From Promethearchaeota archaeon (lineage in GTDB: Archaea; Asgardarchaeota; Lokiarchaeia; Sigyniarchaeales; SOKP01): a DNA stretch of 64,000 bases. Below are positions 46,903-52,334 of this stretch, piece after piece (positions within the stretch are counted from its first letter, which is position 1; each line of letters starts with the position of its first letter). The translations under genes were made by a program, and so were the position numbers. A model generated the notes under the pieces. That model saw only the letters and a list, made by a program, of their open reading frames with translations, was not told the origin of the DNA and did not search any database. The stretch lies in NCBI GenBank assembly GCA_048937405.1, contig JBHLNF010000001.1, forward strand, positions 816,785 to 880,784. The letters are read 5' to 3'.

Positions 46903-47214
46903 TGTTTCAGGTCAACCTTTAGTAAAAATTTAAAATTTATTTAATAAATTATTTGAAGCTTATTAAAATATAAAAAATATACAGTCCAATTTTTATAATT
47001 AGAAAATATGTAAAAATTAAATTACCATTTATATAATTTTTACAGGTTAAACTAATCTAAAGAGAAGATTAATCTTTTTAAAATATAGATTCATATCACC
47101 CACATATTATCTAAAATCATTTATAACTTAGAAAAAACCTAAATTTTTAAATAAAATTTGAACACATTATTTATTTAAGTAGATTAAAAAAAGAATATAG
47201 AGAATTATATAAAA

Positions 47215-49203
47215 TTGGGTGCCGACAAAAATCAATCACTTTTAGAAAAACAACTAAAGACATTAGGTCAAAAGATTAGAATTGACATATTAAAAAAATT
47301 AAAAAAAAAACAATCTCCAATATCATTTTCAAAGTTACAAAAAGAAGTTTTAGGTCATAATCTTTCATCCATAAATTTATCTTTTCATTTAAACACATTG
47401 AAGGAGAGTGAATTAATTCTAACTTCTGATGAAGGATACTCCATTTCACTTTTAGGCGAAAAAATAATTGAAAAGATTTTGTCTATTGAAGAAATCCTTA
47501 ATAAGCAAAAAAATGCACAAATGATTCGAACCTCGAAATATTCGAAAGAATTATTTGATACAAGTAAGATTGAGGAATATCTTGTAAACGAGGGAGATTT
47601 AGAGCGATATTTAGCTAAACAAATATCTCATGAAGTAGAAGAACGTCTTTCTAAAACAAATATAGAATATATGACGGCTCCTTTAATGCGTGAATTTATT
47701 AATGTTGTTTTACTTGAAAATGGATTAGAAGAGGTTAGACACAGATTAACTCGATTGGGAACGCCCCCATTTGAAGTATTTCGGCTATTTGAATCTAAAG
47801 AAAAAGAGTTTTCACCAGAAACCTTTATAAAAAGACTAGGATCTGATGTTTCTGAGCAATTTTTACTGTTAAATCTACTTTCTAAAAATTTAGCTGATTT
47901 ATATTTGTCTGGTGAAATTGCACTATTACATTTAAATTATTGGAGCTTAAGACCATTAAGTATTTATATTAATTCTAAAACTCTAATTGATTATTTTTCC
48001 AAAAAGAATTCAATAAATCTCAAAAATGATATTAGTAGGAGTAAAAAAAACAGATTAATTTCTCAATTTATTGATATTTTATATCTTTTGAAACATTTTT
48101 ATTCAGAAGATTTACTATTAGGAGAATTCAACAAATATTTTCTATCGTGTTTTGCTTCACCTAAAATAAAACAATCCCATTTCAATATATTAGCATCCCA
48201 ATTACTCCGATTCAATACTTTTCTTAATGATGGTAAATCCCATTTATCTTTAGGATTCAATAACAATGGAAAAATCCCTGAAAATATTTTTAATCTTTCT
48301 CGTGTTGATAAGGAATTTTACAATTCCATGGTGTTTCAAAGCAAAGATCGCATTATGCCCTTATTACTTTCAAATATATTTGATAATAATTTATTGGATC
48401 CACAAGATAGTCTTTTAAAAAATTATATTGCAGAAAAAAATAATGGAGATCTCTTTCTGTGCAATTCAAATAATGAAACATTGTTGAATTCCTCTATAAT
48501 TCAAATACCTGACACTTACAATAACATGATTATATTAGATAAAATTCTAATAAATTTACACAGAATATCTGAAGAAGCAAAACAAAATGATGATAAATTT
48601 TTAGAATTATTGGAAAACAAGTTGAATTCTGTATTTGAATTCTTTAAATATAAAGAAAAATTGGTAAGAAAAAAGTTATATCCTCTTAAACAGTGGATAT
48701 TCTTTGTTTCAGAAATTCTAAATGAACAATGCGAGGATCTACTAAGGAAATCCCTGAAATCTATCAGTTTTTTCGGATTAAATGAAGCCATCCTTAATCA
48801 TTGTGGAATCGAACTCGACAGGACAGAAAATAGTAAGAAATTCGCATTTAATATTTTATCATTAATGAAAGAATTAATTGAGGAAAAAAATGAATTGGAT
48901 GATAATAATTTTATTCTGAGTCAACCTCATTACGATTCATATCTAAAAGATACATGGTATAATGGTAATTTACAATTAAATAAAGAAAAAAACCAATATT
49001 CCTCAAAATTGATAAGGGGAGGAACAAATCTTTCTCTGAATAAAAAGATATCCCTCTTTAAAAAGTTTCAAAAAATTATCAATGGTGGTACATTGTTTAT
49101 AGAAAAAATTAATAGAGATGAATTATCAGTTGAGGAATTATTAAAAAATCTTTTTAAATCTGAAGTAAAGGTTATATCTATTAAGGATTGTTTTTTTGGA
49201 TAG
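47215..49203 (+). CDS. ArsR-like wHTH + ATP-cone + degenerate class III ribonucleotide reductase (NrdD-like, predicted inactive)
   Basis: RIDILKKL...LSFHLNTLKESELI HTH; IRTSKYSKELFDTSKI...TAPLMREFINVVL ATP-cone; TRLG.P, SISFFGLNEA, INGG NrdD motifs; no catalytic Cys and no RxxGY loop. Confidence 0.75.
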   Translation: MGADKNQSLLEKQLKTLGQKIRIDILKKLKKKQSPISFSKLQKEVLGHNLSSINLSFHLNTLKESELILTSDEGYSISLLGEKIIEKILSIEEILNKQKNAQMIRTSKYSKELFDTSKIEEYLVNEGDLERYLAKQISHEVEERLSKTNIEYMTAPLMREFINVVLLENGLEEVRHRLTRLGTPPFEVFRLFESKEKEFSPETFIKRLGSDVSEQFLLLNLLSKNLADLYLSGEIALLHLNYWSLRPLSIYINSKTLIDYFSKKNSINLKNDISRSKKNRLISQFIDILYLLKHFYSEDLLLGEFNKYFLSCFASPKIKQSHFNILASQLLRFNTFLNDGKSHLSLGFNNNGKIPENIFNLSRVDKEFYNSMVFQSKDRIMPLLLSNIFDNNLLDPQDSLLKNYIAEKNNGDLFLCNSNNETLLNSSIIQIPDTYNNMIILDKILINLHRISEEAKQNDDKFLELLENKLNSVFEFFKYKEKLVRKKLYPLKQWIFFVSEILNEQCEDLLRKSLKSISFFGLNEAILNHCGIELDRTENSKKFAFNILSLMKELIEEKNELDDNNFILSQPHYDSYLKDTWYNGNLQLNKEKNQYSSKLIRGGTNLSLNKKISLFKKFQKIINGGTLFIEKINRDELSVEELLKNLFKSEVKVISIKDCFFG

Positions 49204-49777
49204 TGAACTACACACAGCCTAAAAGCTGTGGCTTCCTACGAGTACACAACCGCTTCTAGTACGGGTTGGTCTGTATATCGTAGAAAACCATTCCATCGTG
49301 TCAGGAATGATTCCTCGTCCACAGAGGGTTTATGCGATAGGAATTCATAGTAATACTTAAAAGTTAAAAATTAAGTCATGATATTGAGTACTGAGTTGAG
49401 ATCTCGGTCTACATGAGTTCCACAGTCACATATAATATTTCTTTTGAAGAATAACCTTATTTTCAGTTTTTTGCTTTTACAACAGGCTTTTGTATTCTTG
49501 GACTCATCAATTCTTATTACTCTTTTACCTATTTTTTCAGCTTTATAGGTTAAGAATTCGACAATCCTAGATATAAAACCTGTACTGTGAATCAAATTGT
49601 CAAGGATTTTGTGTGTTTTATTCTTTTTAGTATCACCTATTTCTTTTTTTTAAAGTTAGGTTCATTTTAATATATTAGAGAACAATTAGTTTAAAAAAAG
49701 GAGTGTTTAATCATTTAATGATTTCTTATCTTATCCTCAAATCAATCTTTCCTTAAAGAGAGGGATTTTTTTGGATA
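49203..49777 (-). mobile_element. Internally deleted IS200/IS605 (IS1341-type) tnpB element (MITE-like remnant)
   Basis: Inverted homolog of 50872-52314 retaining left-end hairpin, ATGAACCTAAC start (49665), 3' tnpB fragment and right end GTTCAC. Confidence 0.85.
49371..49665 (-). pseudogene. tnpB: tnpB fragment (C-terminal RuvC/Zn-finger only)
   Basis: EFLTYKAEK...IDESKNTKACC...CDCG..DRDLNS is nearly identical to the intact copy; most of the gene is deleted and there is an early stop. Confidence 0.85.
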
Positions 49778-49810: not shown

Positions 49811-50728
49811 TTATTCAGTCATTAACTCAGTTAATAAAGCTTTTCTCATAGGTATCCCATAAAAAGTCTGTTTAAAGTAGATAGCCTTCTCTGAAGCGTC
49901 AACATCAGGAGATATCTCTAAAACTCGAGGTAAAGGATGTAATAACCTGAAATTATCTTTTGTGTCTTTTAGATCATGTTCTCTAAATATATAAAAATCT
50001 TTTAACTTCTCGTATTCTTCAATATCCACAAATCTCTCTTTTTGGATTCTTGTCATATAAAGAACGTCTAATATATCTAATATTTTCCTATAATTCATTA
50101 TTTCTTTATATGGAACTTGTCGTTGTTGCAAAAAATCTTTATCTCGATTTCTCATCCTTAAGCTTTCTGGACTAATGAAATAAATATTTACATCAAAATT
50201 TGATAATAAAATTGAGAGTGAATGTACTGTCCTTCCATATTTAAGATCACCCATTATTCCAATATTCAAACCATCTAATGGGCCAATTTCTTCAGTGATG
50301 GTTAATAAATCTAATAATGCTTGGCTAGGATGTTCTCCACTTCCAGATCCTGCATTTATAATAGGAACTTTTGAAAATTTAGAGGCCATTCTAGCGGCTC
50401 CTTCAAGTGAATGCCTCATCGCTATACAGTCGCTATAATTTTCTACAGTTCTTATTGTATCTGCAATAGTTTCGCCCTTTTTTATAGAAGATACATCGCC
50501 TGAGTGGAATCCGATAACACTTCCTCCTAATCTATACATAGCAGATTCAAAACTAAGACGAGTACGAGTAGATGGCTCAAAAAATAATGTAGCCAAAATT
50601 TTCCCCTGAAGGAGATTTGAATTTTTAATGTGAATCATTTCACTGGCCTTCTTTAGTATATATTCAATATCTTCTCGATCAAATTGCTTCGCACTTATGA
50701 TACCTTCGCTAAATTTCTCTTTGAACAT
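49811..50728 (-). CDS. pyrB: Aspartate carbamoyltransferase catalytic subunit
   Basis: FFEPSTRTRLSF, HPSQALLD, GDLKYGRTVHS, HPLPR. Confidence 0.97.
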   Translation of the reverse strand: MFKEKFSEGIISAKQFDREDIEYILKKASEMIHIKNSNLLQGKILATLFFEPSTRTRLSFESAMYRLGGSVIGFHSGDVSSIKKGETIADTIRTVENYSDCIAMRHSLEGAARMASKFSKVPIINAGSGSGEHPSQALLDLLTITEEIGPLDGLNIGIMGDLKYGRTVHSLSILLSNFDVNIYFISPESLRMRNRDKDFLQQRQVPYKEIMNYRKILDILDVLYMTRIQKERFVDIEEYEKLKDFYIFREHDLKDTKDNFRLLHPLPRVLEISPDVDASEKAIYFKQTFYGIPMRKALLTELMTE

Positions 50729-50871: not shown

Positions 50872-52314
50872 GCTCAAGGATACAGCTCCCTTTAGGGAGG
50901 TGATAAATTGAGCATTAACAGAAAATCACTAAATCCTTATCCACATCTCTTTTTTACTTCCCGAATTACTATCCTTCTAGAAATGAAGCTAACGCAAAGA
51001 ATTAGAATATTTCCCACTCACAAGCAAGAATTCCTTCTTTGGATCTTATCGGAGAAATGTCGTCTTTTATATAATTTTGCGTTAGCGGAACGAATGGAAA
51101 ATTGGCACAAAAATAAAAATCTACCAAGAGAAAAACGTCATTGTGTTGATTATCTTATCCAATCAAGAGCATTACCGGGGTTAAAAGAGAAATATCCAGA
51201 ATATAAATGGGTATATTCGAAGGTTCTCCAAACAATCCTTAAAAAACTCGAGCTAAACTATAAATCTTTCTTTGCATTATGGAATAAGGGAGATCAAAAT
51301 GCAAGACCCCCCCGATTTAAAGGGAAGAAGCATTTCACTACTCTTTGTTATAATCAGTCTGGCTTTAAATTACAAGAGAGATCAATCATCTTCTCTCATA
51401 AACATCCTTCAAATATCATACTTAAGTTTGAATTTCCCTCTCATCTTATTCCTCAAGGGATTATTAAGCATGTAGAACTCTTTCAGTCTGATGAGAGATG
51501 GTATATTTCCCTTACATATGATCTCAAAGTGCCTGAATATCATGATAATCACTCATATCAAGCATTTGATTTAGGAATAAATCAGACTGTAGGAGTAAAC
51601 CTTTCTGGAAACTCAATACAATTCACTCACAGAAGAGCAGACCTCTATTGGAAAAAAAAGATAGAGGAGGTACAGTCAAAACGAGATCATTGTAAGAAAT
51701 ATAGTAATAAATGGCATTGGTATCACAAAAAACTGCTTCAGATGATTAAAAAGTGCGCGTATCAACTGAAAGATTTCCAGCATTGGCTTTCAAACCAAAT
51801 TGTATCTAATACAAAAGCGAATACGATTATTGTTGGAGATTTAAAAGTAAAACAGATGGCTCAAAAGAAGAAAGGAACAAGTATTGCTAAAAAGAATAGG
51901 GTAAATAACACACTTAACCATTCAGTTCACAACACAGGTTATTTGTCACGATTTGTCGAATTCTTAACCTACAAAGCAGAAAAAAGAGGTAAAAAAGTAA
52001 TAAAAATTGACGAATCCAAGACTACAAAAGCCTGTTGTAAATGTGGAAAGCTCGAAAAGAGGACAATTTTCGAGAGAATTATTACTTGCGACTGTGGAAA
52101 TCGGATTGACCGAGATCTCAACTCAGCAATCAATATCATGATACGCTTTTTGTCAGAGAAACATAAATTCGATTTCTTATCGCATGAATCCTCTGTGAAC
52201 GAGGAATCATTCCTAACACAATGGAATGGTTTTCTACGACATACAGGTCAACCCGTACTAGAAGTGGTTGTACACTCGTAGGAAGCCACAGCCTTTAGGC
52301 CGTGTTTAGTTCAC
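50872..52314 (+). mobile_element. IS200/IS605-family (IS1341-type, tnpB only) element
   Basis: Left-end hairpin GCTCAA..CTCCC-TTTA-GGGAG..TTGAGC (50872-50913); right end CACAGCCTTTAGGCCGTG..GTTCAC (ends 52314); no tnpA. Confidence 0.85.
50983..52281 (+). CDS. tnpB: RNA-guided endonuclease TnpB with rearranged RuvC-II
   Basis: ATG 50983 MKLTQRIRIFPT; RLLYN, PPRFK, AFDLG, IVGDL, IDESKTTKACCKCG, CDCG, DRDLNSAINI. Confidence 0.93.
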   Translation: MKLTQRIRIFPTHKQEFLLWILSEKCRLLYNFALAERMENWHKNKNLPREKRHCVDYLIQSRALPGLKEKYPEYKWVYSKVLQTILKKLELNYKSFFALWNKGDQNARPPRFKGKKHFTTLCYNQSGFKLQERSIIFSHKHPSNIILKFEFPSHLIPQGIIKHVELFQSDERWYISLTYDLKVPEYHDNHSYQAFDLGINQTVGVNLSGNSIQFTHRRADLYWKKKIEEVQSKRDHCKKYSNKWHWYHKKLLQMIKKCAYQLKDFQHWLSNQIVSNTKANTIIVGDLKVKQMAQKKKGTSIAKKNRVNNTLNHSVHNTGYLSRFVEFLTYKAEKRGKKVIKIDESKTTKACCKCGKLEKRTIFERIITCDCGNRIDRDLNSAINIMIRFLSEKHKFDFLSHESSVNEESFLTQWNGFLRHTGQPVLEVVVHS

Positions 52315-52334
52315 TCTTAAAGATAATGGTTATT
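52150..52334 (+). ncRNA. Putative TnpB omega/reRNA: scaffold ending at TTCAC 52314 plus flanking guide
   Basis: Region strongly conserved with the non-coding part of the remnant (49203-49370); position typical for TnpB guide RNAs. The 5' boundary is approximate. Confidence 0.6.

Follow-up and report, generated by a model that had tools for sequence, protein, structure and literature searches.

Introduction

How most archaea match the expression of their ribonucleotide reductase (RNR) genes to dNTP pools is an open question, because the regulator NrdR is rare in these organisms (PMC9110341). The window analyzed here, a 64,000-nucleotide stretch from a Loki-type Asgard archaeon with a GC content of 29%, whose close homologues carry Promethearchaeota or Lokiarchaeia names, contains a gene whose product looks like a class III RNR (NrdD) without its chemistry and with a DNA-binding head. 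Databases label the proteins of this family anaerobic ribonucleotide reductases. Is such a protein still an enzyme, the wreck of one, or something else altogether? The original prediction, made from the sequence, saw in it a conserved pseudo-enzyme repurposed as an archaeal analogue of NrdR, and we followed up that reading here.

Results

Domain layout and lost catalytic parts

The gene (Table 1) lies between an RNA-polymerase/S12/S7 cluster on one side and a pyrB-L44e-PCNA-primase cluster on the other. The proposed order of a winged HTH (wHTH), an ATP-cone and an NrdD-like barrel was borne out by Pfam, by alignment of the cone, and by AlphaFold and Foldseek. Pfam places DUF7347/HTH at residues 14-88 (E 3.7e-10) and NRDD at residues 441-644 (E 6.3e-17) of the 662-residue protein; its ATP-cone match at residues 103-174 is below cut-off (E 0.012) and was confirmed when aligned with active NrdD cones, the cone being of the archaeal NrdD type. 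In the AlphaFold model, which was built on an alignment of 78 homologues and has a pLDDT of 77.6, a long helix (residues 79-100) joins the wHTH to the cone. When this model was compared to the PDB with Foldseek, the top 36 matches were all class III RNRs (E 2e-16 to 7e-9), and the ten-stranded RNR barrel fold is retained. On TIGR02487 (NrdD) the protein scores 64.7 bits, below the cut-off of 326.35 bits, compared to 446.9 bits for the genuine NrdD encoded elsewhere in the genome.

Table 1. Features of the fusion gene and its surroundings, in window coordinates
Feature	Position	Strand	Remarks
wHTH + ATP-cone + dead class III RNR gene	47215..49203	+	662 aa, TTG start, frame intact
Putative TATA box of the fusion gene	47144..47153	+	conserved in 14 genus genomes; sequence inference only
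Candidate operator CCGACAAAA across codons 3-5 of the fusion gene	47222..47230	+	also at nrdD and class II RNR promoters
ArsR-like winged HTH, DUF7347 (aa 14-95)	47254..47499	+	Pfam, conservation, dN/dS 0.115
ATP-cone (aa 103-184)	47521..47766	+	Pfam, alignment, dN/dS 0.077
Retained NrdD dimer helices (aa 200-250)	47812..47964	+	dN/dS 0.08; contains S249
Degenerate ten-stranded RNR barrel	47965..49200	+	stops before Zn site and glycyl loop; specificity-loop region looks eroded
Internally deleted IS200/IS605 (tnpB) remnant at the stop codon	49203..49777	-	incidental
pyrB	49811..50728	-	adjacent, convergent; promoter without the motif in the window's family

Catalytic positions were anchored by aligning the intact NrdD of this genome to that of T. 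maritima, and 84 distant and 15 close family members were compared with eight active NrdDs. The finger-loop thiyl Cys pair is replaced by S426/S427 (nt 48490-48495), and no Cys occurs within 8 columns of that position in 15 Loki members, compared to 8/8 active NrdDs that have it; the second active-site Cys is replaced by S249, a position held by E, S, T, N or D across the broad family; and the Asn-x-Asn flap is deleted. Thiyl Cys, second Cys and flap are, in fact, missing from every family member aligned. NrdD of T. maritima cannot do without these cysteines (PMC4493059), nor that of S. thermophilus without the flap-bearing connector (PMC12662201). The replaced Cys of the original prediction is therefore real, but it corresponds to S249 and hence to the second active-site Cys and not to the radical Cys, and the radical pair, which lay outside that earlier check, is likewise lost. 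The four Zn cysteines are missing here and in Loki members, and are retained in 52-54 of the 84 distant members (about 60%). The alignment to active NrdDs also agrees with the earlier view that the protein stops before the Zn-finger and the C-terminal glycyl-radical loop; among the HTH-bearing members found by distant profile search, no glycyl motif was seen, and the same losses are common to the family, with neither the Cys nor the RxxGY tail kept in orthologues.

A retained dNTP specificity site, which had also been suggested, now appears less probable. In this region the dimer helices are kept, and the loop and helix that follow are poorly conserved in Loki members (42% identity and a dN/dS of 0.47 over residues 251-435, by sequence comparison). 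The site looks eroded in this lineage, so that sensing of other dNTPs is unsupported.

Gene end and selection

The IS200/605 remnant is bounded by a 12-nt direct repeat (49191-49202 and 49766-49777). Excising it leaves GGA-TAA and thus the same protein end, and homologues that lack the insertion stop at the same place, which rules out truncation by the IS, as originally argued. A full tnpB element at window positions 50908-52326 and the deleted remnant (49191-49777) flank pyrB in inverted orientation; the two are 78% alike over 459 nt, and the site is empty in the related genomes examined.

A total of 474 homologues was recovered, and nearly all of the best 120 are 647-671 residues long. Among 13 genomes of the genus, dN/dS of the fusion by NG86, to be taken as approximate because dS is near 1.1-1.6, was 0.077 for the cone, 0.082 for the dimer helices, 0.115 for the wHTH, 0.18-0.47 for the barrel and 0.23 overall. 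Active NrdD gave 0.07 throughout (0.071 for its cone), and the barrel of the fusion evolves 3-6 times faster than active NrdD. Purifying selection on the orthologues, one of the checks named in the original prediction, is thus evident, especially in cone, dimer helices and wHTH. Judging from these sequence comparisons, selection is shifted from the active site to the HTH head, the cone and the dimer interface. Across the 84 distant members, residues R22, L29, H58, Y75 and G81 of the wHTH are 96-100% conserved, and the residues of the recognition helix are nearly invariant. The most conserved part of the family is the ATP-cone (R105, S107, E112, R159, N163, R175, R180), in which the basic and acidic hairpin residues and those of helix 4 are retained.

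Distribution and origin of the family

An HTH+cone profile matched 58 of the 61 genomes of the window's family, members of seven other Asgard families, and about 185 of 301 Thermoproteota genomes, in the latter nearly always as a single copy; no match was found in 65 genomes of family f10 or in the searched Asgard families f8, f24, f15, f17 and f28. Profile searching reached divergent members named Hel-, Odin-, Loki-, Bathy- and Thaumarchaeota, and the fusion is a single-copy gene across two phyla (several Asgard lineages and Thermoproteota). In a tree of cone and barrel, the family sits on one side of a 100/100 branch that separates it from active NrdDs, which is consistent with a single origin although not proof of it, as the tree is midpoint-rooted and has long branches. 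We found no published description of the fusion in the largely open-access literature searched, RNR phylogeny papers included.

RNR genes elsewhere in the genome

A separate intact NrdD (710 aa, contig C25) and nrdG (contig C19) are present in the genome, as the original prediction anticipated, and no nrdG lies near the fusion gene, again in agreement with it. Contig C13 carries a class II RNR of the RTPR type with an N-terminal ATP-cone (C13:42961-46644 (-), a 1251-codon frame), which was missed by Pfam PF02867 and found by TIGR02505; its sequence probably includes an intein, and such a class II RNR is present in 108 of the 121 genomes of the order. No TIGR00244 (NrdR) match was found in the genome. 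Next to the fusion and the intact NrdD there is also a second dead NrdD (C26:92323-94131, 602 aa), with an ATP-cone and without HTH, finger loop, Zn site or glycyl tail. This HTH-less paralogue is conserved across the window's family, is under purifying selection (dN/dS of its cone 0.075), and arose as a separate, later duplicate of the lineage's own NrdD (tree support 100/99). Most genus genomes have this same trio. Five Loki genomes of family f2 have the HTH fusion and the class II RNR, and gave no NrdD match. Several active nrdD genes of the genus contain long insertions, with frames near 1190 codons (L031-L034), that on sequence grounds are probably inteins.

A dimer model of the fusion and its HTH-less paralogue, joined via helices 204-220, scored 0.69 compared to 0.00 for the best control, on a scale whose mark is reached by 58/80 solved and 2/110 mismatched pairs; runs agreed in at least 84% of contacts, and the pLDDT of the partner was at least 78. 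Because the modelled interface is the known NrdD dimer surface, the pair probably passed by its likeness to solved NrdD dimers, and we read the model as indicating intact dimer helices only.

Neighbour genes

The adjacency of pyrB, already pointed out in the original prediction, proved to be old and conserved: nearly every Loki locus has pyrB next to the fusion, as do several loci of other Asgard and of Thermoproteota, mostly in convergent orientation, and within Asgard no neighbour of the fusion is conserved more widely than pyrB(I). In several Asgard and Thermoproteota lineages (L099, L101, L103, L106, L116, L162, L167), pyrB and pyrI are divergent beside the fusion gene. Genes for working reductases are neighbours as well. 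The fusion lies directly 5' of the class II gene nrdJ, at a distance of 200-440 nt, in 27 of 29 Nitrososphaeria-like genomes (so classified from named cluster members and from gene content), and no intact NrdD was found in the five of these that were checked; it lies directly 5' of (nrdH)-nrdD in 10 of 60 other Thermoproteota genomes, and tail to tail with nrdH-nrdD in one Asgard family. Because it adjoins RNR genes of either class, the fusion can be said to accompany the working RNR, be it class II or class III.

A candidate operator shared by RNR promoters

Aligned upstream regions of the genus contain an invariant CGACAAAA block about 87 nt 5' of the nrdD start (18/18), and (C)CGACAAAA is found at nrdD in 16/16 loci of the family's other genera and in 4/4 loci of two other families; it is missing from the divergent second NrdD type of some genomes. 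In this genome the nrdD site lies at C25:29920. Of 19 family members of the D-K type, 18 also have the motif at the start of the fusion gene itself. Residue 3 of the fusion is A, S, T or P in 127 of 148 homologues, all of them residues with NCN codons, and GAC makes up only 11% of the Asp codons of the genome; a DNA sequence that stays fixed while residue 3 varies, with a rare codon in it, argues for a DNA-level constraint. Class II RNR promoters, which are non-homologous and were out of sample, have the motif in 21 of 28 cases compared to 4.6% of gene-upstream windows, arranged as two tandem copies near -270, spaced 11-12 nt apart, with a degenerate copy near -48, and a second batch has it in 11 of 18 with a slightly wider pattern. 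On contig C13 of this genome the copies are located near -275, -263 and -48. It is found, in addition, upstream of some copies of the HTH-less dead NrdD. Inverted pairs 50-160 nt apart around the promoter, often seen in families f2 and f3, point to a DNA rather than an RNA element, and in the window's family the sites lie mostly just 3' of the putative TATA box. Since the motif is missing from the pyrB promoters of the window's family and from nrdG, these two genes were rejected as targets. A further block of 18 nt at window positions 47094-47111, 5' of the putative TATA box of the fusion gene, is kept in 14/14 genus genomes and is unlike the RNR motif.

We acknowledge that the motif is short, is not a clean palindrome in the window's family and was defined post hoc for nrdD, that genomes of one genus are not independent in these counts, and that the count of the class-wide pattern is about equal to the control in the window's family. 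Thorarchaeia-type nrdD promoters, from genomes where no fusion was found, have the 6-mer in 4 of 19 cases, two of them inside codons and with no common position, although this is a weak control because their GC content is mostly 42-55%. Outside Lokiarchaeia, an unseeded search in the Nitrososphaeria-like set returned the palindrome GGTGTCAA-N5-TTGACACC about 95 nt before nrdJ, which has a TGTC core in common with the Loki motif. De novo searches for palindromes 5' of nrdD in 30 Bathyarchaeia-type and other Thermoproteota genomes yielded only AT-rich, TATA-like words, slightly above shuffles, and no common motif was found 5' of nrdD in fusion-bearing Asgard other than Loki.

Family f4 keeps the motif 5' of nrdH-nrdD (3/3), and no full-length fusion was found in the four f4 genomes, which are 63-88% complete. 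These genomes encode stand-alone wHTH proteins of 210-275 aa (L362:1237-1869 (-), L378, L379, L380) that score near the top against the Loki-type HTH profile and have the motif 150-175 nt upstream in 4/4 cases, in L362 as a clean inverted repeat. Stand-alone ATP-cones of 165-209 codons also exist (L361:1354-1965, L363:1306-1935 (-), L334:1420-1917 (-)), two of them directly 5' of class II RNR genes and two with the motif upstream, and the f4 stand-alone cone precedes its class II RNR. From their sequences, wHTH and cone of f4 may represent the fusion in pieces; the HTH tree gives no placement.

Discussion

Taken together, these results make it likely, in our judgement, that the fusion is an ATP/dATP-sensing, probably autoregulated repressor of RNR genes, with predicted DNA binding, and a non-homologous analogue of NrdR. 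The core of the original prediction was in fact strengthened by the losses shared across the family, by purifying selection and by the intact nrdD and nrdG elsewhere in the genome, and it gained further backing from gene neighbourhoods that include working RNRs of both classes and from the common promoter motif. The presence of one motif at the fusion's own start and at both RNR promoters suggests a switch for DNA-precursor synthesis in archaea.

A likely course of events is that an ancient duplicate of a class III RNR gained an N-terminal wHTH, lost its chemistry and became a transcription factor that would act on the working RNR genes of the same cell. The cone domains of class III RNRs change their position on the dimer in response to dATP and ATP (PMC12662201), and in NrdR the cone switches DNA binding (PMC9110341). 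By the same token, the fusion would dimerize via the old NrdD helices, with the barrel acting mainly as a dimer scaffold; its cone would read the ATP/dATP ratio and move upon dATP binding, and this movement would reposition the two wHTH heads on or off the operator. In Lokiarchaeia the heads would recognize the (C)CGACAAAA copies in front of nrdD and of the class II RNR gene, as well as the one at the fusion's own start. That these sites lie mostly just 3' of the putative TATA box in the window's family is in keeping with repression at high dATP levels; repression rather than activation is our inference, as is the ligand.

By membership the fusion is neither an NrdD nor an NrdR, and the comparison indicates that it most likely works like the latter. 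Both join an ATP-cone to a DNA-binding domain, and just as NrdR is predicted to control RNR genes of any class, and often its own gene too (PMC9110341), the candidate site of the fusion lies in Lokiarchaeia at class III and class II RNR promoters and at its own start. NrdR, however, is a protein of 140-220 aa with a Zn ribbon (PMC9110341), whereas the fusion measures 600-850 aa and has a wHTH and a whole dead barrel; the two CxxC motifs of the NrdR-type N-terminal Zn ribbon are not found in it, its N-terminus being the wHTH, and its candidate site is unrelated to the palindromic NrdR boxes. With the double-cysteine class III NrdDs of T. maritima (PMC4493059) and S. thermophilus (PMC12662201) it has in common the cone, the dimer helices and the ten-stranded barrel. 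Unlike them, it lacks the thiyl Cys, the second Cys, the Asn-x-Asn flap and the glycyl loop, with the Zn site lost in this lineage, has an additional N-terminal wHTH, and is kept in genomes without a class III system. Its N-terminal domain matches, at the level of family profiles, the ArsR/SmtB-type regulators NolR, HlyU and CadC (E 6e-5 to 9e-3), but it scores below the NCBIfam metalloregulator cut-off (NF033788, 23.7 vs 55 bits), which leaves a resemblance in fold only, and here the wHTH carries a 560-aa RNR-derived body. Transcription factors derived from enzymes have precedents. PurR of Bacillus is a wHTH joined to a PRT domain. NrtR combines an HTH with a Nudix-like domain (PMC2330246). 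In both, as in the fusion, an enzyme fold of the regulated pathway is joined to an HTH and serves as sensor or scaffold. Both differ from the fusion in folds and pathways, and in the fusion the best-conserved sensor is the allosteric cone and not the dead active site.

Other readings of the locus need to be considered. The fusion could be a nucleotide-sensing, DNA-binding regulator with targets of its own (pyrBI, or wider nucleotide or replication genes), while the motif belongs to a different, Loki-wide factor of whose regulon the fusion gene is a member. Such a reading, which we regard as unlikely but worth keeping in mind, would account for the motif of f4 without a full fusion, for the lack of a common RNR motif in Bathyarchaeia-type genomes, and for pyrB(I) as the most widely conserved neighbour in Asgard, also present in several Thermoproteota. 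It fits poorly, however, with pyrB promoters that lack the motif in the window's family, pyrB being usually convergent, with the recurrent direct adjacency of the fusion to RNR genes of two classes, with the motif-bearing wHTH of f4 that is one of the top-scoring hits of the Loki-type HTH profile, and with a genome that has no NrdR. A role at the protein level, in which the dead subunit pairs with active NrdD or with the HTH-less paralogue to inhibit, store or localize it and the HTH is secondary, seems to us improbable. The recognition-helix residues are almost invariant, the HTH-less paralogue is later and limited to a lineage, and the fusion is kept without NrdD in five Loki f2 genomes and in Nitrososphaeria-like genomes, so that an obligate heterodimer with active NrdD, an option raised by the original prediction, is unlikely; these points have to be set against the strong conservation of the dimer helices, the co-occurrence of the trio in most genus genomes, and the modelled heterodimer with the paralogue (0.69 vs 0.00 for the best control), which likely passed by likeness.

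Could the protein still work as an RNR or another radical enzyme, with a separate glycyl-radical domain supplied in trans, much as the spare-part protein does for pyruvate formate-lyase? The barrel fold is retained, the Zn site survives in 52-54 of 84 distant members, and databases carry the reductase label, but this idea is contradicted by the alignment, in which all members lack the thiyl Cys, the second Cys and the flap, those cysteines (PMC4493059) and the flap connector (PMC12662201) being essential in active NrdDs, and by a barrel that evolves 3-6 times faster than active NrdD; we therefore consider it very improbable indeed. Least credence of all is due to a decaying pseudogene or an IS-truncated gene: although the IS remnant is located precisely at the stop codon, a frame that is open and ends alike in hundreds of IS-free homologues, an overall dN/dS of 0.23, in the purifying range, and single-copy retention across two phyla rule it out for practical purposes.

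Going beyond the repressor reading for this locus, we lean slightly towards the view that the fusion represents an undescribed ancient family, derived from a whole dead RNR, that would serve as master switch of the RNR regulon in Asgard, Bathyarchaeia and ammonia-oxidizing archaea, reusing the ATP/dATP-driven movement of the cone to position two wHTH heads, and that pairing with a second NrdD, killed independently, may tune its action in Lokiarchaeia. If true, it would be a clear case of the allosteric machinery of an enzyme recycled to control the enzyme's own genes, and the family now has named candidate target promoters and a testable site. The annotation, too, can be corrected, as the reductase label is applied even in genomes without a class III system, where it misleads metabolic reconstructions. 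The fusion and the paralogue might not be the only dead NrdDs, as a further group of NrdD-like proteins of about 690 aa (P0247, P0257, P0276, P0279), with a cone and without HTH or glycyl tail, forms a branch of its own and is possibly a third dead lineage.
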